From a plasmid: a stretch of DNA of 64,000 nt. The DNA lies in the sequence record NZ_CP028352.1; one strand, 5' to 3'. Positions 1,568 to 21,690 of this stretch are shown one piece after another. Position 1 is the stretch's first letter, and each line of letters begins with the position of its first letter. The notes below the pieces were generated by a model. The model was not told where the DNA came from, made no database searches, and was given only the letters and a program-made list of their open reading frames with translations. The translations under genes and the position numbers were made by a program.

Positions 1568-2017
1568 ATGAAACCGGCAATCTATGCTGAGGGCCTGACG
1601 GTTTTGTGGCCAGCCCTTTTTTCGCCGCCTGTGAAAATCCCTTTATATGGCGAATACTGCCCCGCAGGCTTCCCTTCCCCTGCCCAAGATTACGTTGAAA
1701 AAGAACTCGATCTCAATGAGCTCTGTATTCGCAGAAGGGCGTCGACCTTCTTCGTCCGTGCCAGTGGTAACAGCATGCAGGATCTTGGCCTCTATGATGG
1801 CGATGTCATGGTGGTTGATCGCGCCGAAGAGGCCTCTCACGGTGATATCGTTATCGCAGAGGTTAACGGTGAATTCACCGTTAAGCGGCTGCAGCTTCGC
1901 CCGCGCCTTGCGTTACTGCCCATGAATCCGGCTTACGCCGTTATCTATCCGGAGGAACTGCAGCTGCTCGGCGTCGTCACCTGGTTCTTCAGCAGTACGC
2001 GTGCACGCGGGAGGTAA
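1568..2017 (+). CDS. umuD: UmuD/MucA/ImpA-like SOS mutagenesis protein (S24 peptidase, LexA-like).
   Basis: ASGNSMQDLGLYDGDVMVVD (Ser nucleophile motif) and EFTVKRLQL (Lys general base) align with UmuD. The stop is 3 nt before the umuC-like start. Confidence 0.85.
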   Translation: MKPAIYAEGLTVLWPALFSPPVKIPLYGEYCPAGFPSPAQDYVEKELDLNELCIRRRASTFFVRASGNSMQDLGLYDGDVMVVDRAEEASHGDIVIAEVNGEFTVKRLQLRPRLALLPMNPAYAVIYPEELQLLGVVTWFFSSTRARGR

Positions 2018-2026
2018 TCCTTGCAC

Positions 2027-3301
2027 ATGTTCGGACTGGCCGACGTCAACTCGTTTTATGCGAGCTGCGAAGCACTATTCCGGCCCGATTTGCGTGGCAA
2101 GCCCGTCATCGTTCTCAGCAACAATGACGGCTGCGTTATTGCCCGCAGCGCCGGCGCCAAAAGACTTGGCATAAAAATGGGCGCGCCGTGGTTTCAGATA
2201 AAACATCAGGATTTTTCAGAGAGGATTTATGCCTTCAGTAGCAATTACGCCTTATATCATAGTCTTAGCCAGAGAGTTATGACGGCTCTGGAAGAAATGA
2301 CACCCCGCGTGGAGCAGTATTCAATCGACGAAATGTTCCTGGACCTGACCGGTATCGACGGCTGCGAAGACTTTGAACATTTTGGCCGGCGCCTGCGCAC
2401 GCATGTGCTGGCTACAACCGGTCTGACAGTCGGTGTGGGTATGGGGCCGACTAAAACGCTCGCAAAGAGTGCTCAGTGGGCGAGTAAGGAATGGCCACAG
2501 TTCCGTGGTGTGCTGGCGCTGACGCCGGGAAATATTCAGCGTACCGAAACACTTCTCTCAAAACAGCCTGTGGAGGAGGTCTGGGGAGTTGGCAGACGTA
2601 TCGGTAAACGGCTTAACCTGATGGGGATCAGTAATGCCCTGCAGCTGGCGCACGCGCATCCTGCCCTTATCAGGAAAAACTTCAGTGTTGTGCTTGAGCG
2701 GACTGTCCGTGAGCTGAACGGTGAATCCTGTATCCCACTTGAAGAGCTGCCGCCTGCTAAGCAGCAGATTTGCTGTTCAAGGTCTTTTGGTGAGCGCATC
2801 ACCTCAAAGATACTTATGCAGCAGGCGCTTTGTCAGTATGCGACACGGGCCGCTGAGAAACTAAGGGGGGAACGTCAGTTCTGCAGGCGCATCAGCGTTT
2901 TCATCCGGACATCGCCTCACGCAGAGAATGAGATTTTCTATGGTAACAGTGCCGGCGAGAAGCTCAGCCTGCCAACACAAGATACACGCGATATTATCGA
3001 GGCCGCTATGCGATCGCTTGACCGTATCTGGTTAGAAGACCGCCGGTACATGAAAGCCGGCATTATGCTCGATGACTTTACCCCAAATGGCGTCAGTCAG
3101 CTGAATCTTTTTGATGATGTGCAGCCGCGGGCTAACAGTGCGCAGCTGATGAAGGTACTGGACGGTATCAATCAGTCCGGGCTGGGAAATGTATGGTTTG
3201 CAGGACAGGGGGTTAGCACGGAGTGGAAGATGAAGCGGGACATGCTTTCGCCGGCGTGGACTACGCGCTGGGATGATATACCTGTTGCCCGCGTATTATA
3301 A
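2027..3301 (+). CDS. umuC: UmuC/MucB/ImpB-like Y-family DNA polymerase V catalytic subunit.
   Basis: MFGLADVNSFYASCEALFRPDLRGKPVIVLSNNDGCVIARS...; full length (~424 aa) and collinear with E. coli UmuC. Confidence 0.88.
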   Translation: MFGLADVNSFYASCEALFRPDLRGKPVIVLSNNDGCVIARSAGAKRLGIKMGAPWFQIKHQDFSERIYAFSSNYALYHSLSQRVMTALEEMTPRVEQYSIDEMFLDLTGIDGCEDFEHFGRRLRTHVLATTGLTVGVGMGPTKTLAKSAQWASKEWPQFRGVLALTPGNIQRTETLLSKQPVEEVWGVGRRIGKRLNLMGISNALQLAHAHPALIRKNFSVVLERTVRELNGESCIPLEELPPAKQQICCSRSFGERITSKILMQQALCQYATRAAEKLRGERQFCRRISVFIRTSPHAENEIFYGNSAGEKLSLPTQDTRDIIEAAMRSLDRIWLEDRRYMKAGIMLDDFTPNGVSQLNLFDDVQPRANSAQLMKVLDGINQSGLGNVWFAGQGVSTEWKMKRDMLSPAWTTRWDDIPVARVL

Positions 3302-3756: not shown

Positions 3757-4208
3757 TCTGGTTTCACAGCCATTTTCTTACGCACCCGGTAATGCTGGTC
3801 TTCCTCGATCGCTGCAGCTATCCAGCCCGAAGCAATATTCAGGTCGATATCCGCAGGCAGACTCTCTGACAGTCTGTCCAGATTTACACCAGGTGACAGC
3901 TTTAAGATGAGGGACGCAAAGCCGGCCCATTCCTCATTACTCACGGGGCGCCATCCTCGTCTGAGTATTAGGTCAAACGCGGCCAAAGCTGCCCACAAAG
4001 GAGGCTGTTTGCGTTTATTCCACTCACTAAGAGCAGCACCAGGTACAGCAAGTTCTCGCGAAATGATATTCAGATGTCGCGCATGTTCGGTCAATGTTCT
4101 GGCTGCTTCAGCTGCACTTTGATCTTCGTCTTTTGCCCATCTATGTACGATACTCCCGCGGAACTGGGCAGATAGCTGCTGAAAAGGTGTTAATGAGTAT
4201 GCTGGCAT
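3753..4208 (-). CDS. Hypothetical protein (151 aa) co-transcribed with parAB.
   Basis: ORF abutting the parB stop (ATGA-style overlap at 4208). No recognisable motif. Confidence 0.45.
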   Translation of the reverse strand: MPAYSLTPFQQLSAQFRGSIVHRWAKDEDQSAAEAARTLTEHARHLNIISRELAVPGAALSEWNKRKQPPLWAALAAFDLILRRGWRPVSNEEWAGFASLILKLSPGVNLDRLSESLPADIDLNIASGWIAAAIEEDQHYRVRKKMAVKPE

Positions 4209-5332
4209 TATTCAGACCTCAGGCCTAAGAACTCTACATCGCTGGCGCGCACGTATAGCTCACCTTCAGCGGTATTAAGCCATATAAAACCAAATTCATC
4301 GGGCATCTTATGAAGCAGGACAGTCACTTCAGTACCGTTGAACTTCACTACTGGAATTAAAGGGAGTGGTACATCAGCGGCCTGATACTGGTGTTTTTTA
4401 TTACTGGAAGAAGTACTACCAGATTCAGTAATGAGAGCTTTCGCATGCGAAATCTCAGTTTTATTATCTGGCTGCAGAACATCATCACCACTCTGAGATT
4501 TCGCATGCGAAACCTTAGTAGGTGCTTTACTCACATCACGCCCCTTCAACCGATCCAGTTCCTTTTTTACCTGTACCCGGGTCAAGGTGCTGCCAGCATT
4601 ATGCTTTTCTATCAGTCGGTCTGACGCACCTGAATCTATGTTGTCGATCTGAATCAGCGTGTAAGCAAGATCTACGTCAGAGATAGATTTGTTTTTCAGC
4701 AGGGCCTTTATCTTTTCAGGTGCAGAGCCAATACGGATATGTTTGCTGACAAAAGCTGTAGGCTTGCCGAGTGAGCGGGCGATTTCCTCTCCTGTCATAT
4801 TGAAGTCGGTTTTCAGCTGTTCAAAGGCCAGCGCGGTCGCCAAAGGCTTGAGCCCCGATTGCTGCAGGTTCTCGATAAGCTGCCCCATGATGCGCTGCTT
4901 TTCATCTTTCGGCGGCCGGCCGACGTAGATATCAATAAATTCATCACCGCGCTTTTTCATTGAGCGGATACGCGTAGCGCCAAACCATACGCGGTAGCCC
5001 TTACGGTCTTTCGGAAAACAGCGAGGCGGCGTCAGGTTCCCGAACTCACTGAACGACTCAACCATGCCGGAAATGACCTCCTCATCAAAGTCATCTTCCG
5101 GACGAACCTGCTCGACCTCATAAATCTCATCCGCTCTGACGCGCACGATCTGCCCCTCAGGCTCCAAACCGGGGCGGGCAATTTCTGCCCGAATCTTTGA
5201 CGCATCAGGCGTTCCGACTGGAGCTGGTGTATCACGGGCTGCGACACTGGCAGCAACTTCTGGCATTGCGCTTACGGACGGACCTGAAGTTTTAAGTGCG
5301 TTTAATTTCTTCTGGAATTTACTCGCAGCCAT
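4208..5332 (-). CDS. parB: ParB-family partition protein (centromere-binding, ParB/KorB-like).
   Basis: The ParB-like N-domain and HTH region (...FGATRIRSMKKRG...GEEIARSLGKPTAFVSKHIRIG) are translationally coupled to the upstream ParA gene. Confidence 0.8.
   Translation of the reverse strand: MAASKFQKKLNALKTSGPSVSAMPEVAASVAARDTPAPVGTPDASKIRAEIARPGLEPEGQIVRVRADEIYEVEQVRPEDDFDEEVISGMVESFSEFGNLTPPRCFPKDRKGYRVWFGATRIRSMKKRGDEFIDIYVGRPPKDEKQRIMGQLIENLQQSGLKPLATALAFEQLKTDFNMTGEEIARSLGKPTAFVSKHIRIGSAPEKIKALLKNKSISDVDLAYTLIQIDNIDSGASDRLIEKHNAGSTLTRVQVKKELDRLKGRDVSKAPTKVSHAKSQSGDDVLQPDNKTEISHAKALITESGSTSSSNKKHQYQAADVPLPLIPVVKFNGTEVTVLLHKMPDEFGFIWLNTAEGELYVRASDVEFLGLRSE
4439..4452. promoter_or_regulatory. 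parS-like palindrome, copy B (TTTCGCATGCGAAA), inside the parB coding sequence.
   Basis: 14-bp perfect core with matching flank on one side. Confidence 0.55.
4511..4526. promoter_or_regulatory. parS-like palindrome, copy C (GATTTCGCATGCGAAA), inside the parB coding sequence.
   Basis: 14-bp perfect core, 60 bp from copy B. Confidence 0.55.
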
Positions 5333-6192
5333 CAGTGACCTCCCTGCGTAAGTTCAACAATCTTGTTACTGAGTTCCTGATACTGCAGCGCCGGCTTGCT
5401 TGAAGGAGAATACTCTTTGATGGTCATGCCCAGCTCAATGGCTTCTTTGGCAAGATTTTTCACCCATGAAATATAAGCCAGAACCGTTTCCGGTCCGTAA
5501 TTCTTCTCGTGCAGAATGTCGAACAGACGCTGCAGGTTCTCTGTTTCTACAGCGGTCAGGTAGCCATCGAGGAGAGGCTGATTGTAGTTCTGAACATTCG
5601 CTTGGGTAATATAAGTACCCAGGTATTTAAGTTCGGGATTGTAATTTTTACGAATGCGTTGCATGTACGACAGCTGCTTCCCGACGCCAATACGTGATGA
5701 TTTCTCCAGAAGAGTTGGGATCAGCAGATAATCAGCAACAAGATGAGAGGCAATCAGAAGGTTGTTATATTCTGGCGCCGAGTCGATAAAGATGTAGTCG
5801 TAGTGCTTACGCAGCTCACTGATGCGCTCTTTAAAGTCGAAAATGCAGTCCTGAGGACGATAGTTAATTTCGTGCAGCTCGTTGGTCGATCCAATGATAT
5901 GTCGTCCGTCAGGCAGGACATGAGGTTTAACCTCCGTGTCAGGAAAGAATAACTGATAGGCATTGGCTTCGCCTGGAGAGAAGGTATTACCCAGTGGATC
6001 TTTATCAATGGAAAGCGGCAGAGCATCAGGAAAGGTCCTTTCCGTAAGCCCTGATGTGGTATCAAAATCAATCATGCAGGTCTGCATTCCCATGACCTGC
6101 AGATTATAAGTCAGCTCATTCGTTGACTGAGATTTGACGACGCCACCTTTTTGATTTCCAACAATGATGACAATTCCTGCTTTTGCTTCCAT
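5332..6192 (-). CDS. parA: ParA-family partition ATPase (deviant Walker A).
   Basis: MEAKAGIVIIVGNQKGGVVKS (KGGxxK[ST]). Start moved to the ATG at 6192 (GAGGA SD at -8). The ATG at 6216 lies inside the parS-like palindrome and is probably spurious. Confidence 0.85.
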   Translation of the reverse strand: MEAKAGIVIIVGNQKGGVVKSQSTNELTYNLQVMGMQTCMIDFDTTSGLTERTFPDALPLSIDKDPLGNTFSPGEANAYQLFFPDTEVKPHVLPDGRHIIGSTNELHEINYRPQDCIFDFKERISELRKHYDYIFIDSAPEYNNLLIASHLVADYLLIPTLLEKSSRIGVGKQLSYMQRIRKNYNPELKYLGTYITQANVQNYNQPLLDGYLTAVETENLQRLFDILHEKNYGPETVLAYISWVKNLAKEAIELGMTIKEYSPSSKPALQYQELSNKIVELTQGGH

Positions 6193-6207
6193 AGCTACAT
6201 CCTCAAG

Positions 6208-6223
6208 ATTTCGCATGCGAAAT
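6208..6223. promoter_or_regulatory. parS-like palindrome, copy D (ATTTCGCATGCGAAAT), immediately upstream of the parA start. Candidate centromere/operator.
   Basis: 16-bp perfect palindrome, 16 bp upstream of the ATG at 6192. Confidence 0.6.
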
Positions 6224-6283
6224 AATTGTGATGGCTCGTCGCTGACTGGAGTACTTCATTGGCTGAAGGGGATATGCTCCATT

Positions 6284-6386
6284 GAGTCTGGCGTTTCGCC
6301 GTAATGTCAGCCGGCTACCCGGTGACCAACTCAGTATGCCAGGCCTATGATAAAGAATCAATAATGATTCTTTATCATAGGCCTGG
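6284..6386. repeat. Left copy of a ~100-bp direct repeat, ending in a 48-bp palindrome (CCAGGCCTATGATAAAGAATCA-ATAA-TGATTCTTTATCATAGGCCTGG).
   Basis: Matching sequence GAGTCTGGC(G/T)TTTCGCC(G/T)TAATGT(C/T)A(G/T)CCGGCTA(C/A)CCGGT... occurs at 6284-6338 and 7441-7496. The palindrome arms are perfect 22-mers. Confidence 0.7.
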
Positions 6387-6477
6387 CATGTGACTTTTAA
6401 TCCATTACACCTACTGACTTCGGCTTTAAATGCTCACTGAATCGTGAACGTAGTTTACGAGATTCAGGGTACCTGAC

Positions 6478-6668: not shown

Positions 6669-7440
6669 CCGTGTTGCTGGTTTTACAGTGTACAGACAAC
6701 ACGTTCAGCTCTGTCCCGGTGAGGCTGCGTGCATCATGCCAGTGATGCGCCGGGTAATGTTTAATCTATGTGCTAATGCTATCAGTCCGCCTTGTAAGGA
6801 AGAGCCAGATTCGCTATTCTTTGCGACACAGTGTACAGACAACATGTTCAGTGAAGTCTGAGGAATGATGAAAGCGTTGCCACGCTTCTGTCATTCCGGA
6901 AAAAGGGATCAGCATGCCAGCTGGTCCTTTTTTTTTGCGTCAGCAGAACCTGACCTCATCCAACCTGCGAGCAATTACTACATGTAGTGGTTACTCGCAA
7001 AGCTAATCCACTACATGTGGATAGATATTAGTGATTTACGGCGAGTTGACAAGAGCAAAAAATGATGGGTGGAGGGGTTGTAATTCTTGCGAAATTTCTT
7101 AGCCCACGCCTTGTAAGGCCTGGCATCGTGTCAACCGGATCAAACTTTTTTTTCTTAATTTGATCGGGCGCGTGTTTTTTTTCAGGAATGGCCATCTAAG
7201 AGCCCCAAACGCATTGTGAGCGACGCATTTTTTTTACTGGTAGCTTCTCACTAAATTTCTTCGTTTAAACCCTTTAGGTGGCACTAAAGCGAAAATACGC
7301 GCAATGCCGAGCATTTTGGCTGAAGCTAAGCCCGCAGTTAGACCGGTAGCTATACGGTTTATTACGAATAAAGCTTATAAAAATTCTGCCCACACAAAGT
7401 CCCAAAACGTCAGACGTGACAATTTCATGGCATCCTGGTG

Positions 7441-7538
7441 AGTCTGGCTTTTCGCCTTAATGTTATCCGGCTAACCGGTAACACAGTGATCATGCCAGCC
7501 CGCATTAAGGAATCAATATTGATTCTTTAATGCGGGCT
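7441..7538. repeat. Right copy of the direct repeat, ending in a 42-bp palindrome (AGCCCGCATTAAGGAATCAAT|ATTGATTCTTTAATGCGGGCT, 1 mismatch).
   Basis: Same upstream repeat body. The palindromes share the core AAGAATCAATA(A/T)TGATTCTT. Confidence 0.7.
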
Positions 7539-7539
7539 A

Positions 7540-7555
7540 ATTTCGCATGCGAAAT
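7540..7555. promoter_or_regulatory. parS-like palindrome, copy E (ATTTCGCATGCGAAAT).
   Basis: 16-bp perfect palindrome abutting the right-hand long palindrome at 7497-7538. Confidence 0.55.
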
Positions 7556-7577
7556 GTTAAGTGTATAGCGACGAGAA

Positions 7578-8654
7578 TTAATCATCATCCCATGCCTCTC
7601 TGCTCCCGCCGCAGAAGTCACAGCCAAACGCAGCACTGAGGTCAGGAACTGATGAACTATTGTAGGTGCAATAATCGCATGTGCTCAGTGATTTATGCAG
7701 CGTCAGGCAGGCTGTACAGAGATAGTTTTTACCAAACTCACATACTGTATCGTATCCATCACAGTCTGCGCATCCAGCCGGGACAGGGCTAAATATGCTG
7801 TTCTTTGTGAAGGGTTCGGTACTTATAGCGTTATACCTATCCAGTTCGCATTTGCAGCGAGAGCAGCAAAATTCTTCACCGTCCGCATGCATGACGTTTA
7901 ATTGCTGACAGTTCGGACAAATGACTTCCATATGTGCCTCAGTGCGATCGCAGACACAACACTGTTCCTGATAGAACCGCATATCGGGAAGAGGCTGGCT
8001 GCGAATAACCGCATCCTGGCAACAGATTACACACCGAGTAACGGAACGATTAGCCTTAAGCTCTGCGGCGATCAGCGTCTGCACACTTTCATGGCGGAAC
8101 TTTGCCCCGGCATAAAACTCACTGCTGCGTAGCATTCTCGTTTCATCCGTCGCCAGCTTCGCTCGTAATTGCCAGCCAAACAGGGATGACCAGTCCTCGC
8201 GCATCAGCCGGTTCAGCGCGAACCATGCATCCGCCTGCTCTGTCAGTACTTGCCGTTGGTCTCCTTCGCTAAGCTCATTGTGATAAAAGTGGACGACACG
8301 GTTCCGATGATTTTTAACTTTATTAAAAAGGTCAGCTGTCTTTTTGCTTAGCGGCTTTTCCAACACGTCTCCCAGGCGAGCGCAGGCCTCGTCATAGGTC
8401 ACTGACTGGAAATCCCCTGCCAGATATTTCTTGCGCTCCATTTTTTTTCCTGAGCAGGCCAACGTCCAGTGCTCATGAACCAGAGGAACCTTCATCAGGA
8501 TCTCTACGGCAGTCCAGAAGCTGACAACAGAAAATTTAGCCTGCCGCGACTGAAGCTCCTCACGCGCCTTATTCAGAAAATCGAGCCCGTTGGTGATTAG
8601 CGCCTCCGTTTCGGCTGTGAGCTGCTGGCCTTGTTCATCAGATTCGTCGTGCAT
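7578..8654 (-). CDS. HEPN-motif protein with a C-terminal multi-CxxC zinc-ribbon region (358 aa). Candidate RNase / abortive-infection effector.
   Basis: KNHRNRVVHFYHN fits the HEPN R[N]xxxH (Rx4-6H) motif in a predicted helical N-domain. The C-terminal 160 aa carry >10 CxxC pairs (CVICCQ...CPNCQ...CSRCKC...CADCDG...CTAC...CDYC...CDFC). Confidence 0.5.
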   Translation of the reverse strand: MHDESDEQGQQLTAETEALITNGLDFLNKAREELQSRQAKFSVVSFWTAVEILMKVPLVHEHWTLACSGKKMERKKYLAGDFQSVTYDEACARLGDVLEKPLSKKTADLFNKVKNHRNRVVHFYHNELSEGDQRQVLTEQADAWFALNRLMREDWSSLFGWQLRAKLATDETRMLRSSEFYAGAKFRHESVQTLIAAELKANRSVTRCVICCQDAVIRSQPLPDMRFYQEQCCVCDRTEAHMEVICPNCQQLNVMHADGEEFCCSRCKCELDRYNAISTEPFTKNSIFSPVPAGCADCDGYDTVCEFGKNYLCTACLTLHKSLSTCDYCTYNSSSVPDLSAAFGCDFCGGSREAWDDD

Positions 8655-8758
8655 ATTTTTCCTTCACTTTATTTGCCCTAGCCAAGAGGGACGGCAGCGG
8701 AATTTAATCGATCCGGCCGGGCATTGTGATACCACGAAGCCCGCTGCCTTCCCTGAAC

Positions 8759-10018
8759 TTATTCCAGTTCTTTATCTATGTCCTGCTGCATCCTTTCAAG
8801 GATTTGCGCGTCAATATTCTGTGTGAATAGCTGAACCTGCTGGGCAAGCTCGGTTACTTCATTTTGCCCGGTGGGTAACAGCTCACCATCCTTGTTCCTG
8901 CCGTTACGATGCACGATGTCATGCCGGCGTTTAACTGCGGCGCCCAGTAAGGGCAGCGACGACGGCGGAAACTCCGTCAGTAGCGTTTTGCTGAATATGT
9001 TCTTAGCCGTGTCCATTTTATGGAGTGACATACCGTCAAGCGCATCTTTGATGTCCGTATCGATGCGTGAGAGCTGATCATACAAATCAGAAATGGTAAT
9101 TTTTTTATCTTTGAAGGGTTGATAGCTCTCAACAAACCGCTGTTTAACCGTAGGGCGTGAGAAAATTTCGCGCTTCAGGATGTCACCCAGGTAGGCCTCC
9201 ATGGCAGTAATGATGCTGGCATAGCACATACTCTGCAGTGAGTGATTTTTTGGCTGAGAAGATGACAGATCCAAGATATCCTGGATTGATGCGCGGCAAT
9301 TCTTATGCGGCCACGTTTCCATCTCCGATATCTCTGCAACATCTTCAAAATTATCTTCATCATCTTCATTCAACAGCTCAGCAACATTTAGTTCGCAGAG
9401 CGCGCCGTCAGGACATGACGCGAGAAAAGCCACCACAAACTGCTCCCAGTCAGGCCCTGGAAAATTAAATACTCCGGTTGAAGGATAGTTACTATAGGTA
9501 GGAACATAACTAAGCATTGCGTTGACCAGAGGATTCTCGCTGAGATCGCTCCACCACGGCCCGTCGGAGTAATGCTCTTTAGCAGAATTTTTCAGCTCTA
9601 CGGCTTCCGGAAAAGCGGCAATCCAGTCGCGTAATTCCGTCTCTTTTACCGCCTTTACAAACTTGCTATAAACACGCTTATGTAACCTAGCGCGACGATT
9701 TCCCGTACCGGCTACAGCATATTCATCAGATTGATCGTTCAGTCTGTCTATCTCATTCTGCATCGTGCTGAGCATCTTCATCAGGCTCAGATCAAAATAG
9801 CGGTCACATTCATCCAAATCGTAACCAGCATGTGCCATACGTTCACGAATTTTCGCAACAGTGGTACGAAATCCATAGAAAAGATTGTAGATATTGGCAG
9901 CCTCGCCGGGCTTGGACTCAATAATCCTGTCACACTTCCTGAAGAACCAGCGGTCATACCTAATAGTAAATTCATGCACTTCAACACCGGCAATTATGAT
10001 GCCTGTAAAAGATGACAT
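8759..10018 (-). CDS. Hypothetical protein with a C-terminal HEPN-like motif (419 aa).
   Basis: C-terminal LGAAVKRRHDIVHRNG (Rx4H) in a helical ~150-aa domain. Same strand as, and immediately upstream of, the 358-aa HEPN/zinc-ribbon gene. Confidence 0.45.
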   Translation of the reverse strand: MSSFTGIIIAGVEVHEFTIRYDRWFFRKCDRIIESKPGEAANIYNLFYGFRTTVAKIRERMAHAGYDLDECDRYFDLSLMKMLSTMQNEIDRLNDQSDEYAVAGTGNRRARLHKRVYSKFVKAVKETELRDWIAAFPEAVELKNSAKEHYSDGPWWSDLSENPLVNAMLSYVPTYSNYPSTGVFNFPGPDWEQFVVAFLASCPDGALCELNVAELLNEDDEDNFEDVAEISEMETWPHKNCRASIQDILDLSSSQPKNHSLQSMCYASIITAMEAYLGDILKREIFSRPTVKQRFVESYQPFKDKKITISDLYDQLSRIDTDIKDALDGMSLHKMDTAKNIFSKTLLTEFPPSSLPLLGAAVKRRHDIVHRNGRNKDGELLPTGQNEVTELAQQVQLFTQNIDAQILERMQQDIDKELE

Positions 10019-10039
10019 ACATTTAATCCTTTATATGGT

Positions 10040-10792
10040 TTAAGGCAGCATGCGCAGCAGTTGCAGAGACGCTTCGGTGTCCAGGCTGAAGCGAACCTGA
10101 TGACTGGCAGCCACGTCCAGGGCAAACACCTTCGTATAAACTTCGGTTGATTCAAACTTCTCATGCCCCAGCAGTGACTGCAGCACCTTCGGCGGCACGT
10201 GGTGATAGAGCATGTGCATCGCGAAACTGTGACGGAACGTATGGGGAGAGATTTCAATGCTGAACCGCACGCCGGCACGGGCAGCTGCATTGATGGCGCG
10301 GTTTATCCAGTTCCTCACCGTGCGATCGGAGACGGTCCAGACCGGCAGAGCGCGGCGCTCGCCGGTATCACTGTCGGTCTCAAATTCTTCCCTGACGCTG
10401 GCGAACAGCCGGCGCATCTCATCAACGTAAGCCGGATCGGAAAGCGGCACAACACGGTTGGGACTGGTTCCTCTTCTTGGACGTCCGCTGCCGGCGCGCC
10501 GCTGCTTAGCCGTGCGGATCACCACGTGCGGGATGGCGTCGTTCAGGCGAAAGTCACGCCGCCGCAGCGCCAGGACTTCATTGAGACGTCCGCCGGTGTT
10601 CCATAAAGTATTGACCAGCGCATGCTGGGTCCAGTCCGGTATATGGTGAAGCAGGCCGGTGATCTCAGGTGCCAGTAAGTAACGGGGCAGCTCGGTGTAT
10701 GCGGCGGCCATGGACCGCAGCGCGAGCGCACGACCAAAATCGGGCTGTGCAGCTGGCAGCGCGACCTGAGTATTGACGGATGGTAGCGACAT
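10040..10792 (-). CDS. resD: Tyrosine site-specific recombinase, ResD/XerD-like (plasmid multimer resolution).
   Basis: C-terminal catalytic residues HTFRHSFA...LLGHEKFESTEVYTKV (R-H-R-Y). 250 aa, typical for plasmid resolvases of the integrase family. Confidence 0.7.
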   Translation of the reverse strand: MSLPSVNTQVALPAAQPDFGRALALRSMAAAYTELPRYLLAPEITGLLHHIPDWTQHALVNTLWNTGGRLNEVLALRRRDFRLNDAIPHVVIRTAKQRRAGSGRPRRGTSPNRVVPLSDPAYVDEMRRLFASVREEFETDSDTGERRALPVWTVSDRTVRNWINRAINAAARAGVRFSIEISPHTFRHSFAMHMLYHHVPPKVLQSLLGHEKFESTEVYTKVFALDVAASHQVRFSLDTEASLQLLRMLP

Positions 10793-11265
10793 AAACCCTC
10801 TAAAAAAATGACAGCGCTATGCAAAATCTGGCGGGATTTACCCCTGCTGCTTTCTCAGATTTCACACAGCGACGTCAGCTCCTAATCTGCCCATTTTCCA
10901 CTGTCTGACGGGGCCAGACCACCGGAAAAATCCGCTGAGTGGTCCTGCTTCATTTTCCGACTTCCGGATATATACCATAAAACGGAACAAAACAGCAGGC
11001 GGGGGATGGGCAGGGCAGATCCTGAAAAGATCCGGTTATGCCTGGATAAGGGGACCAGTGTGGTGATCGGACACCGTATGTTGTGGTCCCGGCCCTGAAT
11101 CGCCTCCTGACGCGGGGTTTCCGGTTATTACAGAAAACGGAAAGCGTGAACCTGAGAAATGGAACGCAGGTGATCACTAAGATAATTCTTAACAGCTTAC
11201 TGCGATCTGAGTAAAAATTGCGCTACTATAGGGCAATACCGCTAATCAGGGATAAGGAGAGAAGA

Positions 11266-13467
11266 ATGGCTGTGCTTACTATCAGGGGTGTCAGGAGTTA
11301 CGGTGCCGACAGAGACGTCCAAATAGATCTCAGCAACAAAGTTACACTGATTTATGGTCAGAATGGGTCGGGAAAATCAACTATCTCAAATTATTTTTCT
11401 GGATATTATCCGGAAAAGTACCGCCAGTGCCGTTTTGAAAGTCAGGTAGAATTGTTTCCGCTTGTATTCAATCAGGATTATATCGAAAGAAAATTTAGTC
11501 TTGAGAACGTTCAGGCAGGAATTTTCACACTCAGCGAGCACAATAAAGATATTCAGGAACAGGTTGAGAGTCATAAAAAAAGAATCGCTCGAACAGATGC
11601 AAAGGTAAGCGAACTTAACATTGAAATCGCCGGGCGGGCGGAAATGGAGTTGACCCTAATAAATAACTGCGCAGCCAGAATGTTTAAAAGGACATCCGCT
11701 GACCGGACTCGATTCACGTCTTTTCTTACAGGAGCGAAGCAGCAGAGAAATTTCTATGAACGAATAAATGATATTCCCCTCACAGTCGCACAACTGAACA
11801 CGGAGGAACTATCTGCCCGTCTCGAAAACCTGCAGAAAAGCAAAGGAACAAGTTTACCTTATATCAACATTAGCCTCCCAACACAGCTAAATCCTGATGT
11901 GATCCGGCTAATTCGTTCACCGCTTCAGCCCGCGTCGGGGACGCTATTTGCCGGGTTTATTGCAAATCTGGGAAATGCCGACTGGGTCAGAGAGGGGGTT
12001 CGATTTATTCATGACGATGTCTGCCCTTTTTGTCAGAACTCATTTGATGCAGCCCATTTTGCCGAAGAAATAGCAAGGATGTATGACAAAAGTTACACCG
12101 ACGCGATCGAAGTAATAAAAAAGGCAGCGGTAGAAGTAGCGGAAAATATTGAATATCTCAATGATCTATCGGAGAGAGTTTTCAGACACCCCGCGGTAAA
12201 CGAAGGTGCAGAAGTTCTCAGCTCACTCAAGTTACTTATTCAGATAAATCAGTCAAACCTTCAGACAATATTCAAGAAAATCGAAAGACCTTCTGAGATA
12301 TACGATGTGGCTGAAATTTCTGAAGCACGCAACAGCCTCATCAGCAACATAGATAAGATAAACAATACCGTTTCTGCTAACAACCAGCTGGCCGATAACT
12401 ACGATGCCGAAATGGCGAAGTTAAAGGCTGATGTCGACACGTATCTGCGCCAGATTTGCGACGAGTATCTTGTGGCACTTACGACTGAACTTCAGGAAGT
12501 CAGGGCTCAGAAAATAAAAGCCGAGCAACAAGCCTCAGCTCTTTTGACTGAAAGAAGGCAGCTCGGGGAGCAAACGTCACGACTTATAGGGCAACTTTCA
12601 GTCATTCAACCTACCATTGATTCCATCAATAATAATTTGAAAGCATTGGGCGTAACGGACTTCCATATATGCTGCCATGACGAGAAGATGAAACTTTACC
12701 GGCTCAGACGTACAAGCGATCCAGGAGAACGGGATGTATTCAGAACGCTGAGTGAGGGTGAAAAAACCATCATTGCGCTGCTCTATTTTATCGAATCCTG
12801 CACCGGCAGTGTTACGCCTGATGCCGTCCACGATGGCCGGAAGATAATAATTATTGATGATCCGATATCCAGCCTCTCACATAATTACATTTATGAAGTA
12901 GCCTCGCTGATAAAAAGAAAAATTATTAAACATGACATAGCCCGCCATCTGATAATCCTTACTCATAACCTGTTTTTCTTTCAGGAAATTTTGCTGACGT
13001 CAGTTAGAAGGCTGGAGAGTAAACTTGATGCCCCTAAAGGCTGGTCACTGCTACGTATTATCAAAAATGAGCACAGCGACTGTATCCCTTTATCCATGCA
13101 CGAAATGCTTAACGAGTATCAGGCTCTCTGGCAGACGCTCAAAGACGTGCAGGACAACAAGAGTCAGGTTATTGTGCTGCCAAATACGATGAGGAATATT
13201 CTCGAATACTATTTCAGCTTTGCCTGTAAAGAAGAAAAGCTGGAAAAAACGCTTGCCGCTCTGGCTTCAGAGCACGCCGAGGGCTGTTATGATTCGTTCT
13301 ATCGGGCAATAAACAGACATTCTCATTCAGATGGCAGAAACATTCTTTCTACAGGCATTATGGATAAAAGCGAATATTTCAGGCTTTTCAGAAAGATATT
13401 TGAAGAAATGGGTGAACTGGCTCATTACTGCTCAATGATGGACGAAAAACTGGAGGAAGTGATTTAA
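11266..13467 (+). CDS. AAA_13/ABC-type ATPase with a CxxC 'zinc-hook' and coiled-coil, RloC/PrrC-like (candidate anticodon-nuclease defence protein).
   Basis: Walker A IYGQNGSGKSTIS, D-loop IIIIDDPISSL and H-loop ILTHN. CPFCQ lies before a long coiled-coil segment. The C-terminal region has MRNILEYYF (R-x3-E) followed by EH/RH residues, as in the PrrC/RloC nuclease triad. Start chosen at MAVLTIRG with an AAGGAGAG SD. Confidence 0.55.
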   Translation: MAVLTIRGVRSYGADRDVQIDLSNKVTLIYGQNGSGKSTISNYFSGYYPEKYRQCRFESQVELFPLVFNQDYIERKFSLENVQAGIFTLSEHNKDIQEQVESHKKRIARTDAKVSELNIEIAGRAEMELTLINNCAARMFKRTSADRTRFTSFLTGAKQQRNFYERINDIPLTVAQLNTEELSARLENLQKSKGTSLPYINISLPTQLNPDVIRLIRSPLQPASGTLFAGFIANLGNADWVREGVRFIHDDVCPFCQNSFDAAHFAEEIARMYDKSYTDAIEVIKKAAVEVAENIEYLNDLSERVFRHPAVNEGAEVLSSLKLLIQINQSNLQTIFKKIERPSEIYDVAEISEARNSLISNIDKINNTVSANNQLADNYDAEMAKLKADVDTYLRQICDEYLVALTTELQEVRAQKIKAEQQASALLTERRQLGEQTSRLIGQLSVIQPTIDSINNNLKALGVTDFHICCHDEKMKLYRLRRTSDPGERDVFRTLSEGEKTIIALLYFIESCTGSVTPDAVHDGRKIIIIDDPISSLSHNYIYEVASLIKRKIIKHDIARHLIILTHNLFFFQEILLTSVRRLESKLDAPKGWSLLRIIKNEHSDCIPLSMHEMLNEYQALWQTLKDVQDNKSQVIVLPNTMRNILEYYFSFACKEEKLEKTLAALASEHAEGCYDSFYRAINRHSHSDGRNILSTGIMDKSEYFRLFRKIFEEMGELAHYCSMMDEKLEEVI

Positions 13468-14156
13468 TTCTGACTTTGGTTTGAGGCATCATCACCTGCG
13501 GGCACCATTCACTTAACGATTCGGGAGCGAGCGCATGTGCTTACGCACATGTTCTACGCGCCCGAAACGAAAACGTGTATACCGGATAACCGGAACAATT
13601 TTCGGTTTCATGAGGCTTTCCTTTTACAAACCGGCTACTGCCGGAAGTCCCTGTACCCATTACAGGCTGGTAATGATCCAGAGGAGAACGCCCGAGGTGA
13701 CGATGTGACTATCATACAAAAAATGGCACCAGGTGTCATAATCTTCATGCATTTTTTACACCAAAAATCTCACAGAAGTTCGGCTAGTGCTGTTTTCAAG
13801 TTCCGACTTTGACGGAAAACGGAAAAGCGGATTTCTCTAAAGTGATAATGAATGAAAAAAAACCAATCGGGAAAAATTTCGGATGAGTCGTAGATAAGCA
13901 GGTTAGTATCAGCCTGAGGTTTAAAGATTATCTGCAGCCGGAGGCAGTATTAAGGATTTGATATCCAATTCTCACTCTGTTAGGTTATCAGGCACATCAC
14001 TACTCAGTGATGTTAGCTCATCTAGATAGACATTAATTCGTTTACACATGGGCATATTACTTTTTGTAGTACATTCTCAATTAATCATATACCATTAACA
14101 ATATTATGGCTTAAGTGTTTTGCCAATATTTAATCATACTAAAAAAGGAGTTACCG

Positions 14157-15317
14157 ATGCCAAACAATTGCAATTACTTATATTTAGAAGACGAAGTGTC
14201 AAATTGCCATTCCTTCATATTTCACATGGAAATTGCATCTTATTTATCTGTTACAGAATATGCTAGACAATCCGGAGGGAACATTGACGGGCAACGCCCT
14301 GTACTAAAATCACAAAGTGCTCGAATAATAAGAGACCAGATGACTGCCGACTTTAGAAACGGAGGGGTTTTACCTCCGGTAGTAATAGGCATGGTTGATC
14401 CTAATTTCAATTTAAGCTCCATAAAAACACCAGATGATATCTATAAATACATTGATACTAACAGAAAGGTACTTTGCATTATTGATGGAATGCAAAGAAC
14501 AGAAGCTATGATTAATGCAGGAGTTACTGCGCCCAGAAATGTTAGGGTCGAGCTTTGGTTGGTTGAATCATTAAATAAGTTGATTTATAGGATGCTCGTT
14601 TTAAATACAGGACAAGTACCCTGGACAATGCAAAAACAACTAGAAGTTGTAATGAATCCTGTCATAAAAACAATTCAAAGCAAAATACCAGGCATTGAAT
14701 TACCCACTACTGAAGATGCACAAAGAAGAACACAGGCAGGTAAGTACCAAGCAAGTAAAATCATTGAATCATTTTTAGTGTTTGGAGCGCGTTCAGAAAA
14801 AATAAATACCCGTGATTCGATCGCTGAAGAATATGCAAAGTTGGATTTTATAGAATCCTCATCAAAACAAGAACTATTAGACACTTATATTGATTTCCTT
14901 CGTAGAATTTATGAACTTGATGTCCAGCTTTGTAGAATTAATAAAGATAACTCAACTAGTGGAAAATTCAAAAAAGGTTCCGATATTTTAGGAAGCCAAC
15001 CTGCATTAATAGGGATTACAACAGCATTTGCTATAAAAATCCTTGGCCGGCCTAAATTGGACTTATCTGCAGAACAGCAAAACAAGAACAAGATAAGTAT
15101 ACTTTCAAATTTTGATCGATTTATTGTGCGTCTTGAATCAATGAATGAGCAAGAATTAACGGAATTCGTAAACTTAGAGGCGCTAAATTCAATGAGTCCA
15201 TCATCAGCTTCTACTAAGGTTGGTGACCAAGAAAGACAATTCTTTAAGGGGGCGTTTAATGTCTTGCTTGAGGATGAATTTAATGTTCCGAATATGGATG
15301 TATGTTGGGGTCACTAA
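14157..15317 (+). CDS. DGQHR-domain protein (DndB/ParB-nuclease-like superfamily), 386 aa, in AT-rich DNA.
   Basis: Motif VLCIIDGMQRTEAMI (DGxQR). AAGGAG SD 8 nt upstream of MPNNCNY. GC content is far below the flanking DNA, which indicates a foreign origin. Confidence 0.5.
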   Translation: MPNNCNYLYLEDEVSNCHSFIFHMEIASYLSVTEYARQSGGNIDGQRPVLKSQSARIIRDQMTADFRNGGVLPPVVIGMVDPNFNLSSIKTPDDIYKYIDTNRKVLCIIDGMQRTEAMINAGVTAPRNVRVELWLVESLNKLIYRMLVLNTGQVPWTMQKQLEVVMNPVIKTIQSKIPGIELPTTEDAQRRTQAGKYQASKIIESFLVFGARSEKINTRDSIAEEYAKLDFIESSSKQELLDTYIDFLRRIYELDVQLCRINKDNSTSGKFKKGSDILGSQPALIGITTAFAIKILGRPKLDLSAEQQNKNKISILSNFDRFIVRLESMNEQELTEFVNLEALNSMSPSSASTKVGDQERQFFKGAFNVLLEDEFNVPNMDVCWGH

Positions 15318-15318
15318 A

Positions 15319-16572
15319 ATGCATGAACATATTGAAGCATGTAGCTCTATAGCTAACTTACTAAATTTCAAACACTTTTACTCTGCTGAACAAGAAAGTA
15401 GAAGCATGACTAAAAGAAATCAAGTATTATTTGATAGTTTGAAAAACCTGTCTGAAGAAAACGGTTTTAACAAAAAGGAATATCCCTATCATGAAAAAAT
15501 ATGCATAGCAACAAATGATTCTGAAAAAGATTGGCTTAAAAATATCTCCTCCAGTGAAAAGGTATGTGCTGCTGATTTTGAAATAGTTAATGTTGGAAAT
15601 TGTTTTTCTGTATCCTACTTTTACTATTCCAGTGAAAAATACTTAATTGTTTCTGGCTTGAATGATGTATCCCTTGATGAGGGATTTGAATTTGAAGCGA
15701 TAAATTCAGGGGTTTTTACTTTATTTTCATCATTAAACTTAATCAAGTTTAAAAACATTAGCAATAATATAAGCAAAGTATATAACGAAATACTTAACAA
15801 AGATCCAGATTTAGCCGACCCTAAATTTGTGGATTTGAATAATATAATTAGTTATTTCGAGCCTACATATATATGCAAAATTAATAAAGAAGCTATATTC
15901 TATGAATTACAATTAGACCGTATAGCGGCTTATATTACAATGGCAATCACAAAAGATAACTACCCGACTGATATCCCTGTATTTAGTTTAATTAAAGATC
16001 TAATAATAACAGGAGAGCGTAGTATTAATTTCTCATATCTAGCTAAAGCAATATTTATTAAGGATGAGCCTTATTTGCTTTTTATGGAACTTTACAGAAT
16101 GCTGGAGAGAATATATGCAATTCCAACCATAAAAGCTCTTAAACATGAGTTGTGCATTGGAATGGATAGCCATTGGGAAATTATAAGCTCAATAGAAAAA
16201 ACCACTGGGTGGCGAAAGAAAGAGAACGAAGGGCTATATACACTACTATCACAATTAGAATACTCAATTCTTAATGACGCCTACAACACCTTGAATAAAA
16301 ACCATGGGGATTATTTCAACAATAGCTTAGTCATTAAAAAGCAAAAATTATTGCAAGATCTTGATATTAAGAGTGAATCTTATTCAAGTGCTTGCAGGGA
16401 GCTGGAAGAAGCTATAAAAGTTTGCCTTAGAGATTATATATATAAAACAAGAAATTCTTATGTGCATTATAGAGAGGCTTTAGAATCACAACTGGATCAG
16501 GGAAAAATACATTCTCTATGCGAGTCTTTATTAATGATAATTAATCCTATATATGTGAAGTTGGGAGTATGA
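15319..16572 (+). CDS. Hypothetical protein (417 aa) translationally coupled to the DGQHR gene; a possible C-terminal HEPN-like RNxxxH motif.
   Basis: The start is 2 nt after the upstream stop. IYKTRNSYVHYRE lies near the C-terminus. Very AT-rich. No other recognisable motif. Confidence 0.45.
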   Translation: MHEHIEACSSIANLLNFKHFYSAEQESRSMTKRNQVLFDSLKNLSEENGFNKKEYPYHEKICIATNDSEKDWLKNISSSEKVCAADFEIVNVGNCFSVSYFYYSSEKYLIVSGLNDVSLDEGFEFEAINSGVFTLFSSLNLIKFKNISNNISKVYNEILNKDPDLADPKFVDLNNIISYFEPTYICKINKEAIFYELQLDRIAAYITMAITKDNYPTDIPVFSLIKDLIITGERSINFSYLAKAIFIKDEPYLLFMELYRMLERIYAIPTIKALKHELCIGMDSHWEIISSIEKTTGWRKKENEGLYTLLSQLEYSILNDAYNTLNKNHGDYFNNSLVIKKQKLLQDLDIKSESYSSACRELEEAIKVCLRDYIYKTRNSYVHYREALESQLDQGKIHSLCESLLMIINPIYVKLGV

Positions 16573-16776
16573 TTTTAAAGCATATTTCATATATTGTGAT
16601 TATATCCCTGATTAAAACTAGCCTTTGTTAGTAACATTCGCATGTTGTACGTTTAAAACGTTTAGCGACTCCAGAAACAAAGGCCCCCCATGAGCGAGTT
16701 ATGTACTTTAACTTAAGGAATTTTCCGTTTAAATAGGTTGTCCGTGAAGCCCGCTTTGCATAAAAAGGAGATCAAC

Positions 16777-18105
16777 ATGGCCATGAAACTCATTAAAAAG
16801 AAGGCCCCGCGTGGTGCCCTGAAAAGCTGGTTATCTGAGGATGAAGAAGCTGCCGTTAAGAACTTCTTCGGTCGCAAGCAGGTATGCAATGCGCAGGAAC
16901 GTGCACTAGCGGAGAACGTGATTCATGAAATGCGCGAGAAGGAGCTCTGGCTGCATTGCAGCTGCGTGGGTGGCGATACGCCAGCACTGAACAATGCCAA
17001 ACTGAGATCTGAAACCCAAACGTTGTTTCTGTCCGGGTTTGGCCATAGCCACGACCCATCCTGTCCCATGCACAGGGTCTTTAAGGGTGACGAGGATACT
17101 ACCGGTTCAGGAACCCGTAAAAACGCTGGGAGCAAGCGATTAAACTATCGTGATTTTTTACCAAAAGATGAGTCAGAGACGACTATTAAGGCGCCAGGCA
17201 GCGCAGGATTTACTGGTCAGGATAGAACCAGGCGAAAACGCCGGCCACGAGTTGCACGTTTGCTTCTGACGCTGATTGAAGATGCCGGGCTGAATACTTT
17301 CAGCCCGATCAGCCCGCTGCCTAATCGGGCACCCAGAACATGGCTTGCCGCTCTCGCAGCCTCGGCAGATGCTCAGGAATTTGTGCGCGGGCGCAGGCTT
17401 TCGGAAATCGTACGGTTTCAGCCGACCATGGGCGAGTTTGCCCAGGAAAAATTAATGCTTGAACTGGAACGTACGGATGCCAACTGGCCGGCAGGAAAAG
17501 CCCGGGTGTTTTATCAGATATTTATGTCGGAGCTGGTCAGCCGTGAACATGTTACGTTCGCCTGGAAAGATGGGGAACGCAGGTTTTCTCCGGAGAAGGG
17601 TGTCAGCATCAATGGGGAATCACAGGAAGGCGTGAGGCCGCCTTACTGGGTCATACTGGCCTTCAAACGCTCAGCTGAAGGTAGCGTGATATGCAGCGAA
17701 GGGTATGCGCACGCACTATTCAGACGTAACTGCCCTGTCCCGGTAGACAGTGACCTTGAGAGGCAGACGATGGAAGGTATTGCTGAAGTGGCCAGCTGGC
17801 TTAAAGGCGGAGCAGACGTACTCACCCTCATAAAACCCCTGTTTGATATTGAGGTAGAGATGGAGGGGGAGAAAGGCTTTGTGCTGCCGGATTTTATTAT
17901 TCAGGCCAAATTGCCGGATGGCCGGGAACATGCCGTAGTGGTAGAGACGATGGGATATACCGATGATGAGTACTGCGAACGTAAAGCCGAACAGCATAAA
18001 GGGATGCGCACACTTGGAACCCTTCAGACGGATCCTCCGCGCTGGCCACATGAAGTCACTAAGCCTTTTACCAACCATTTGTATGGTGTAATCAAAAATC
18101 TATAA
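16777..18105 (+). CDS. Hypothetical Cys/His-cluster protein (442 aa) with a possible nuclease-like C-terminal domain.
   Basis: AAGGAG SD before MAMKLIKKK. HCSCVGG...HSHDPSCPMH metal-binding-like cluster. C-terminal GFVLPDFII...AVVVETMGYTDDEY resembles PD-(D/E)xK-type signatures, but this cannot be confirmed by eye. Confidence 0.4.
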   Translation: MAMKLIKKKAPRGALKSWLSEDEEAAVKNFFGRKQVCNAQERALAENVIHEMREKELWLHCSCVGGDTPALNNAKLRSETQTLFLSGFGHSHDPSCPMHRVFKGDEDTTGSGTRKNAGSKRLNYRDFLPKDESETTIKAPGSAGFTGQDRTRRKRRPRVARLLLTLIEDAGLNTFSPISPLPNRAPRTWLAALAASADAQEFVRGRRLSEIVRFQPTMGEFAQEKLMLELERTDANWPAGKARVFYQIFMSELVSREHVTFAWKDGERRFSPEKGVSINGESQEGVRPPYWVILAFKRSAEGSVICSEGYAHALFRRNCPVPVDSDLERQTMEGIAEVASWLKGGADVLTLIKPLFDIEVEMEGEKGFVLPDFIIQAKLPDGREHAVVVETMGYTDDEYCERKAEQHKGMRTLGTLQTDPPRWPHEVTKPFTNHLYGVIKNL

Positions 18106-20657: not shown

Positions 20658-21690
20658 TCACTTAATAGATGGGATATCTTTCAGCCGCGTAGTGTAACGC
20701 GGTGACAACATTTCACGCTTCATCTGCCAGGCACTGTCACGTTCACCCTGACCGGCGAACCATACCTTTCCCTTACCTGAGCGGTTAATGGTGTCCAGTG
20801 CAGCCATCAGCGCATCAGCATTTGCACGCGGCTGCTGCTCGCTGAACATGTCGAATTGCGCGACCCCAGACTGATAAAAATCACCCAGCATGACGCCCGC
20901 TTTAGCGTACCGGTAGCCTTCAAGCCAGATAGTGCTGAGTCCGCGGAGCGCTGACTCAATAATGTCGCGCGTATCATTCGTCGGATAATCGCAGATGCGC
21001 GAGGCGGTATTCGAATACTGTGGCTCATCGCCATGCCGGCCCGTTGCGATGGATACACTGATATGACGGCAGCGCGAATTCTGCTCCCTAAGTTTTTCCG
21101 CCGCACGTGTGGCATACAGCACGATTGCCTGCTGCATATCTTCCAGTTTTGTGACTCTTTCGCCAAATGATCGCGAGTTTAGGATGTGCTGCTTTGGCGG
21201 CGGGGCATCTTCCAGTGCAATACAGGACTCACCATTAAGCTCGCGAGTAGTACGCTCAACGATAACGTCAAAATTTTTCCGTATCATGCTGATGTTGCTG
21301 TCAGCCAGCTGCAGAGCCGTGGTGATCCCAAGCTGGTACATGCGCTTAGTAATGCGCGGCCCAATACCCCAGATATCGCTGACGTCGGTCAGGTCCAGTA
21401 GTTTTCGCTGACGGGTTCGGCTGGACAGGTCTACCACACCCATTGTCTGGGTCCATTTCTTCGCGGCATGGTTAGCCAATTTGGCCAGCGTTTTCGTTGG
21501 GCCGAATCCTACGCCGATAATTAACCCGGTTTCCTTCCGGATGCGCTCTCGCATCTGCTGTCCGAAAGTTTCTAGAGGGATCAGGCTATCGATCCCTGTG
21601 ACGTCAAGAAACGACTCATCAATGGAGTAAACCTCCTGACCTGCGGCCATTTCGCCCAGTATGGCCATCATGCGCGCTGACATGTCGCCA
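20658..21690 (-). pseudogene. umuC: 3' fragment of a second umuC-like gene (lacks the first ~80 codons), cut at the left end of the inserted element.
   Basis: Translation ...GDMSARMMAILGEMAAGQEVYSIDESFLDVTG... aligns from UmuC residue ~80 to the C-terminus. The missing N-terminus is found at 32675-32904 on the same strand. Confidence 0.8.

Follow-up and report, generated by a model that had tools for sequence, protein, structure and literature searches.

Two adjacent genes for HEPN proteins, here called geneA and geneB, were analysed in a 64,000-nucleotide stretch of plasmid DNA (sequence record NZ_CP028352.1; the whole stretch is referred to as the window). In the best explanation, to which we assign a probability of about 0.6, these are two autonomous defence genes, each coding for a single putative HEPN RNase of the abortive-infection type, that lie next to each other in a variable slot for cargo on a conjugative, Pantoea-like plasmid. 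Upstream, this slot ends at resD, the gene of a multimer-resolution recombinase, and downstream at a conserved 16-nt palindrome by the par locus. We regard the two genes as independent because the tested relative of geneB is sufficient for defence by itself, each gene occurs alone, one takes the place of the other at a hotspot of integrative and conjugative elements (ICEs), their alleles are uncoupled and their HEPN families are unrelated. The initial annotation of this DNA had proposed a two-component RNase system built on a heterodimer; an obligate A:B pair is not supported.

HEPN families of geneB and geneA

The assignment of geneB to the HEC-08 family is based on three findings. The protein matches the PADLOC model for HEC-08 (PDLC04162) over virtually its entire length (E 3.9e-143, residues 1-357 on positions 1-357 of 358). 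BLASTP aligns it from end to end, at 45% identity (E 2e-111), with the tested protein WP_001313577.1 from Escherichia coli ECOR52, the reference sequence being drawn from Table S2 of Payne et al. In this pairwise comparison, H122 of geneB is aligned to H128 of HEC-08. Judged by sequence, geneB is thus a member of a named and tested single-gene defence family, and the initial statement that the architecture belongs to no named system has to be withdrawn. HEC-08 (Hma-embedded candidate 08) was described as a single gene of E. coli ECOR52 whose product joins a DUF3644 HEPN domain to zinc-ribbon-like domains at the C-terminus; the gene lowered plaquing of several coliphages, and mutation of the histidine H128 of its Rx4-6H motif abolished defence (Payne et al., bioRxiv 10.1101/2024.01.29.577857). 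Length and architecture are the same in geneB, and the Rx4H motif is kept. HEC-08 is embedded in an Hma system or island of the chromosome; geneB, by contrast, is plasmid-borne, anchored at resD and located beside a second HEPN gene.

The N-terminus of geneB matches the DUF3644 model (E 1.2e-62). DUF3644 has been classed as the EC042_2821 family of HEPN domains, which is fused to zinc ribbons among others (Anantharaman et al., 2013, PMC3710099). A further match is to phrog_37794 (E 3e-127). Most proteins of the HEC-08 family are named ‘hsdR’ by NCBI/RefSeq; they do not resemble the R subunits of type I restriction systems, and the name is a propagated and misleading misannotation that deserves correction.

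The C-terminal part of geneB contains CxxC pairs at residues 208, 232, 246, 264, 295, 313, 326 and 345, and none of the 16 cysteines varies among 40 homologues. Beta-hairpin ribbons are predicted over residues 205-343. The tail thus does consist of several zinc ribbons, as first described, namely four; the number of CxxC pairs, given as at least ten, is corrected to eight (residues 208-348).

The protein encoded by geneA consists of two annotated domains. Residues 1-232 match Pfam family PF18871 (HEPN_Toprim_N) nearly from end to end (profile positions 1-221 of 223; 44.9 bits, gathering threshold 25), and residues 248-406 match PF18735 (HEPN_RiboL-PSP; 35.6 bits, gathering threshold 28.4). Homologues are named ‘HEPN/Toprim-associated domain-containing protein’ by NCBI. 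In the AlphaFold model (predicted local distance difference test score, pLDDT, 86), the N-terminal domain NTD1 is composed of four strands and long helices, and the C-terminal domain adopts the four-helix fold of HEPN proteins. A Foldseek search of the PDB with this model gave nothing below E 0.3 and revealed no solved structural relative of NTD1; profile searches of the PDB with both the geneA and the geneB family gave no significant relatives.

The combination of HEPN/Toprim-NTD1 with a MAE_18760-type HEPN domain was catalogued in 2013, together with alternative fusions of NTD1 to two HEPN families, Toprim or Mrr nuclease (Anantharaman et al., 2013). As the effectors to which it is fused are interchangeable (HEPN, Toprim, Mrr), NTD1 is presumed to be a sensor or regulatory module. 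geneA has exactly the two catalogued domains and a conserved Rx4H motif; the catalogued family is known through comparative genomics alone, and we found no experimental work on it in the literature. When the PADLOC models were compared with the window proteins, geneA obtained no match. The NTD1 sub-family is small, with 25 representative clusters among 1.84 billion proteins, nearly all of them 400-430 aa long.

A bare Rx4H pattern is weak evidence for a HEPN domain, as the initial annotation had itself cautioned: Rx4-6H occurs four times in geneA and twice, in overlapping form, in geneB. Conservation singles out those belonging to the HEPN domains. In geneA, the sequence RRHDIVH is located at residues 364-370, the conserved motif being R365-x4-H370; among 39 homologues (29-87% identical), R365, H366, I368, V369, H370, R371, N372 and G373 are invariant, and R365/H370 is the only one of the four pairs to be so. 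In geneB, the motif lies within HRNRVVHF, and H116, R117, N118, R119, V121 and H122 are invariant in the alignment of the 40 homologues (44-90% identical). HEPN folds are also the top structural matches of both models (for geneB: 2hsb 11.3, 1ufb 10.4, 5yep_B 9.4, Csm6 9.0). With the fold present and the motif conserved, both are genuine HEPN proteins, which bears out the initial proposal in this respect.

The two HEPN domains do not belong together at the profile level. hhalign gives a probability of 0.14, and the sole overlap of the alignment consists of the two Rx4H motifs. By profile comparison the two families are therefore unrelated, and an origin of geneA and geneB as diverged paralogues was rejected. 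The active site of a HEPN protein is as a rule formed by a homodimer. By analogy, each protein would homodimerise and thereby form a composite Rx4H active site of its own. Both would be kept off until the accessory module, NTD1 in geneA and the zinc ribbons in geneB, senses an infection cue; the activated protein would then cleave RNA and so block phage growth, possibly along with growth of the cell.

Paired and solitary copies

To survey gene contexts, we scanned loci with hidden Markov models built from the geneA and geneB alignments: 22 loci from species-representative genomes, surrounding relatives of geneB, and 80 from metagenomes, surrounding relatives of geneA. The genome scan was seeded with the strict peptides VSFWTAVE and HRNRVVHF and is biased to closer relatives.

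Twenty of the 22 species-level genome loci carry geneB without geneA. The hosts are Proteus, three Pectobacterium, K. grimontii, Citrobacter, Dryocola and Huaxiibacter, and there are distant homologues from metagenome-assembled genomes. Of 5426 complete E. coli genomes, 342 carry the validated HEC-08 on the chromosome, and no geneA-like gene adjoins it in the one context inspected, that of Nissle 1917. Solitary geneA was found in about 40 loci. All geneA relatives below ~31% identity lack geneB, as do all those that were looked up in Vibrio, Obesumbacterium, Aeromonas and Pectobacterium.

The two genes also occupy the same place in different elements. A solitary geneA in an Obesumbacterium ICE (locus L031) and a solitary geneB in a Pectobacterium ICE (L004) are both inserted between traU and traC, and the two ICE backbones are colinear, with proteins 60-75% identical on both flanks. 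geneA and geneB are thus interchangeable at this hotspot. A Gabija-like pair of genes for an OLD-ATPase and UvrD precedes solitary geneA in Vibrio and solitary geneB in Proteus.

A 446-aa protein without Pfam match is encoded directly before solitary geneA in L031-L033 (4220-5560, Obesumbacterium ICE) and in L051 (3162-4706, a metagenome contig). That clade of solitary geneA may have this protein as a partner, or the protein may be plain ICE cargo.

Both genes were found together in 27 loci, in either order. Among the plasmids compared, geneA precedes geneB in the window, in Pantoea JZ29 and in Kosakonia, and geneB precedes geneA in P. stewartii, E. ludwigii and others. The paired genes are on a common strand, separated by 58-160 nt, and pairing spans geneA identities from 86% down to 31%. 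Among the plasmids of the PLSDB database, adjacent copies occur in Enterobacter, Klebsiella, Citrobacter, Kosakonia and Pantoea, and of the 40 best plasmid matches to geneB, at least 33 have a full or truncated geneA match next to it. Close matches at the DNA level are restricted to one PLSDB plasmid, that of Pantoea sp. JZ29 (82% over geneA and resD), so that the plasmid analysed here is itself absent from PLSDB.

Among the loci sampled, the pair was seen solely behind resD. A two-component system is expected to co-occur across independent contexts and to be rarely split; here, there is a single context for the pair, and each gene is often alone. These data, the swap at the ICE hotspot and the lack of relationship between the HEPN families speak against the heterodimeric system initially envisaged.

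The resD-anchored slot and its turnover

The coordinates of the locus are collected in Table 1. The two adjoining ORFs (open reading frames) were found as initially described, on one strand downstream of the ResD-like recombinase gene and with the same lengths and positions, and they are consistent with the RefSeq annotation of homologous plasmids.

Table 1. Features of the geneA-geneB locus in the window.
Feature	Position	Strand	Remarks
geneA	8759-10018	-	ORF, 419 aa; HEPN/Toprim-NTD1 followed by RiboL-PSP (MAE_18760-type) HEPN
geneB	7578-8654	-	ORF, 358 aa; HEC-08 family by sequence, DUF3644/EC042_2821 HEPN and four zinc ribbons
geneA N-terminal domain NTD1, aa 1-235	9314-10018	-	Pfam PF18871; alpha+beta
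geneA C-terminal HEPN domain, aa ~245-419	8759-9286	-	
geneA catalytic-type motif R365-x4-H370 within RHDIVHRNG	8909-8926	-	Homologue alignment
geneB N-terminal HEPN domain, aa ~13-160	8175-8618	-	
geneB catalytic-type motif R117-x4-H122	8289-8306	-	Alignment; H122 corresponds to H128 of HEC-08
geneB zinc-ribbon array, aa 208-348	7611-8033	-	8 CxxC pairs, 4 ribbons
ResD-like tyrosine recombinase, 250 aa	10040-10792	-	Pfam Phage_integrase, E 4.5e-18; conserved anchor, context only
A-B intergenic spacer	8655-8758	-	Imperfect long hairpin and geneB ribosome-binding site
16-nt palindrome ATTTCGCATGCGAAAT	7540-7555	.	Distal edge of the variable slot

A ResD-like recombinase gene lies directly upstream, on the same strand, in all 24 A+B loci for which the upstream flank is available, regardless of the order of the two genes. 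In the window it ends 22 nt upstream of geneA, and its best NCBIfam matches are XerD/XerC. On the other side, ATTTCGCATGCGAAAT follows the second gene, be it geneA or geneB, in the window and in L013, L037, L039, L040, L041, L043, L047 and L053 (Pantoea/Erwinia clade). Because of these two constant neighbours, we describe the pair as sitting in a slot with conserved boundaries.

A second copy of ATTTCGCATGCGAAAT is located at the start of parA (6208-6223), where it overlaps the start codon; the genes for ParA and ParB occupy 4208-6216 on the minus strand. Between the start of parA and the stop codon of geneB lie 1.36 kb that are poor in ORFs, with a copy of a ~130-nt unit at either end (6208-6389 and 7439-7555). 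Each unit combines ATTTCGCATGCGAAAT with a large palindrome, whose arms measure 25 nt in one copy (6336-6389) and 21 nt in the other (7497-7538); the core is TAAAGAATCAAT/ATTGATTCTTTA. The units are probably partition or operator sites and at the same time mark where the slot ends distally.

The contents of the slot vary far more than its anchor. Mean pairwise identity over the paired loci is 74% for ResD, as against 45% for geneA and 46% for geneB. Loci with a ResD 92-97% identical to that of the window have geneA alleles at 45-75% and geneB alleles at 42-90%, and the two are uncoupled: in L001, geneA is 75% and geneB 42% identical to the window alleles, in L037 the values are 62% and 90%. 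In L047, the order is reversed at a ResD identity of 94%. Slots with resD and only geneA or only geneB also occur, some of them with frameshifts or insertion sequence (IS) elements. The idea that HEC-08 has a natural partner consisting of NTD1 only in large Klebsiella and Citrobacter plasmids was rejected: in p1 of K. michiganensis, the one such plasmid inspected, IS26 cuts geneA, and in the Salmonella plasmid pR17.4942_71k (IncFIB), IS26 directly follows geneB and geneA is absent. Homologues of ResD are present on at least 5000 PLSDB plasmids, compared with about 200 with geneB and roughly 20-40 with full-length geneA; resD is therefore part of the plasmid backbone, and geneA and geneB are accessory cargo.

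The slot resembles the defence hotspots of conjugative elements, with conserved flanks (ResD at 92-97% identity, the palindrome), divergent and reassorting cargo, and alternative genes taking the same position. The literature that we searched, though not in a search dedicated to the slot, contained no description of such a slot behind resD on IncF-like or Pantoea plasmids.

On a group of large PLSDB plasmids (~280-425 kb) of Citrobacter, Salmonella, Enterobacter and E. coli, geneB is represented only by an unannotated N-terminal relic (aa 12-127, 70% identity). In NZ_CP016764.1, the one record cross-checked, the relic (224793-225140) lies directly downstream of resD (225211-225969), which points to former occupancy of the slot followed by decay. 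The cassettes of the Enterobacter/Kosakonia clade (L026, L027, L052, L054, L058-L060, L065, L066) are AT-rich between and after the two genes. These regions contain repeated palindromes of the type TACA(N2-4)TGTA, such as ATTACATATGTAAT and AATACATATGTATT, which are absent in the window and look like operator sites for some regulator.

The gap of 104 nt between geneA and geneB holds no ORF. Its predicted fold (-40.6 kcal/mol, z = -1.95; arms GGGAAGGCAGCGG...CCGCTGCCGTCCC) is not followed by a T-run and is not conserved among the other loci compared. Common to these loci is a AATAAAGGAAAA-like ribosome-binding region before geneB. Rfam gave zero matches over positions 1-24000 of the window. A scan of 7200-11300 for consensus promoters and terminators gave no minus-strand match; none was obtained upstream of resD either, so that the scan is uninformative on co-transcription. 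Integron-like cassette exchange was considered and rejected: the 250-aa Xer/ResD-like recombinase scores far below the cut-offs of the integron-integrase models and is not an IntI, and the A-B hairpin is marginal and, unlike attC hairpins, not conserved between loci.

Several observations weigh against complete independence of the two genes. Pairwise identities of geneA and geneB are correlated with each other (r = 0.51) more strongly than either is with those of ResD (0.30 and 0.08). In the resD slot, 27 paired loci stand against ~6 solitary ones, and several of the latter are frameshifted or disrupted by IS elements. Persistence of pairing through allele replacement and order reversal could reflect selection for both genes and hence some functional interplay. 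The sampled loci are in part redundant, since they include related plasmids. A defence role of geneA is suggested by domain logic and genomic association, the family itself having been catalogued only.

The persistent pairing and the correlated identities would be accommodated by a cooperative two-gene HEPN system, acting through a heteromer or through cross-regulation (for example as sensor and back-up) and selected as a unit of the plasmid. Adjacency on one strand at short distances, kept in both orders over a wide range of geneA identities and in most of the best plasmid matches, is what such a system would display. We nevertheless consider it unlikely: HEC-08 is by itself enough for defence (Payne et al.), both genes are widely solitary and form a pair nowhere but in the resD slot among the sampled loci, one takes the other's place at an ICE hotspot and their alleles reassort independently, and the HEPN families are unrelated, HEPN sites being normally homodimeric. 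A version in which the resD-A-B and resD-B-A arrangements are kept by selection, the two HEPN proteins guarding or backing up each other against inhibitors encoded by phages or plasmids or acting jointly against competing replicons, appears similarly doubtful. If it were true, the cooperating pair would be a plasmid-specific dual-HEPN module and the NTD1-HEPN family of geneA a new defence family.

Even less probable, in our view, is that the cassette serves the plasmid in competition with other plasmids, its putative HEPN RNases destabilising rival replicons. The idea comes from Ishtar, a monogenic system reported to cure cells of RP4, in which a HEPN domain of the DUF3644 or DUF4145 type is followed by a C-terminal domain (bioRxiv 10.64898/2026.07.06.735840). 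The type of the N-terminal domain is shared with geneB, and the paired form was found on plasmids only, where it sits between resD and par/rep, a region of maintenance functions. However, the C-terminal domain of Ishtar is described as beta sheets and three helices rather than zinc ribbons as in geneB. None of five HEC-08-family accessions checked is present in the list of Ishtar homologues (Table S3 of that study), HEC-08 as the closest tested relative acts against phages, and solitary copies reside in ICEs and in chromosomal defence hotspots.

That the pair is a post-segregational killing (toxin–antitoxin-like) addiction module, in the resD-adjacent position held by ccdAB in F, is very improbable: HEPN domains are the toxins of HEPN-MNT systems, SO_3166 of Shewanella (SO_3166/SO_3165, PDB 5YEP) is among the top structural matches and the cassette lies amid maintenance genes (resD and parAB; relBE and a zeta toxin in related plasmids), but no small antitoxin gene, of the MNT type or otherwise, was revealed by the ORF lists or by Pfam searches of large neighbouring ORFs. 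In addition, geneA and geneB encode large multidomain proteins of the abortive-infection type (360-420 aa, compared with ~130-aa minimal toxins), HEC-08 could be expressed alone in the defence assay (Payne et al.), and both genes occur singly on chromosomes and ICEs.

Two stacked, independently acting HEPN defence genes thus remain the explanation that we prefer.

Neighbouring genes and implications

The initial annotation had noted other defence-like genes in the vicinity, which holds true. Divergent from resD, positions 11218-13467 (+) encode a 749-aa AAA_13 ATPase with a full-length match to PADLOC model PDC-S06 (E 8.8e-233) and weaker matches to PrrC and LmuB; by this similarity it is a further candidate defence gene. 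A block of low GC content (32-38%) lies at 14115-16572 (+), in which two ORFs overlapping by ~100 nt match DzbA (E 1.7e-51) and, weakly, DzbB (E 8e-7). This Dazbog-like block looks like a recently acquired defence insert. According to the best-supported reading, the genes at resD form a small defence islet with the PDC-S06 ATPase and the Dazbog-like pair.

A gene at 16738-18105 (+) encodes a protein of ~455 aa without Pfam or PADLOC match. Homologues (31-38% identical) are encoded just downstream of the A/B pair in L026 (3537-4895) and L027 (7052-8419), and also in L052, L059, L063 and L066; in both annotated plasmids, L026 and L027, the gene is followed by repE. A relationship with the 446-aa protein preceding solitary geneA in ICEs was considered and rejected: the two are unrelated, and the 455-aa gene belongs to the plasmid backbone, beside repE. 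In the window, the PDC-S06 and Dazbog genes separate the 455-aa gene from resD, which suggests that they were inserted into the backbone.

The window contains an intact umuD/umuC at 1568-3301 (+) and a second umuC-like gene at 20658-21683 (-) that lacks ~75 N-terminal residues; together they suggest a past rearrangement or duplication of the plasmid. The remainder includes a gene for a 705-aa tyrosine recombinase followed by a large ORF (29500-32624, -), a gene for a DotM_C-domain protein (42328-43605, -) and one for a 1337-aa LPD7 ‘large polyvalent protein’ (59895-63908, -). The DotM_C domain is typical of type IVB/MPF_I conjugation, and the gene set fits a conjugative plasmid like Pantoea pJZ29-03 (MPF_I, MOBP).

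The apparent novelty of geneB is gone, as it belongs to a known and tested family, and geneA to a catalogued one. The resD slot and the interchangeability of the two genes are useful findings that will hardly surprise specialists of defence islands. The geneA family is rare and not covered by any PADLOC model; its exchange with a validated defence gene at an ICE hotspot and its place beside Gabija-like genes provide strong guilt by association and make it a candidate for phage defence. The space between resD and the palindrome on the par side of enterobacterial conjugative plasmids behaves as a defence-cargo slot with fast turnover behind a highly conserved anchor gene, which may be mined for more defence genes.

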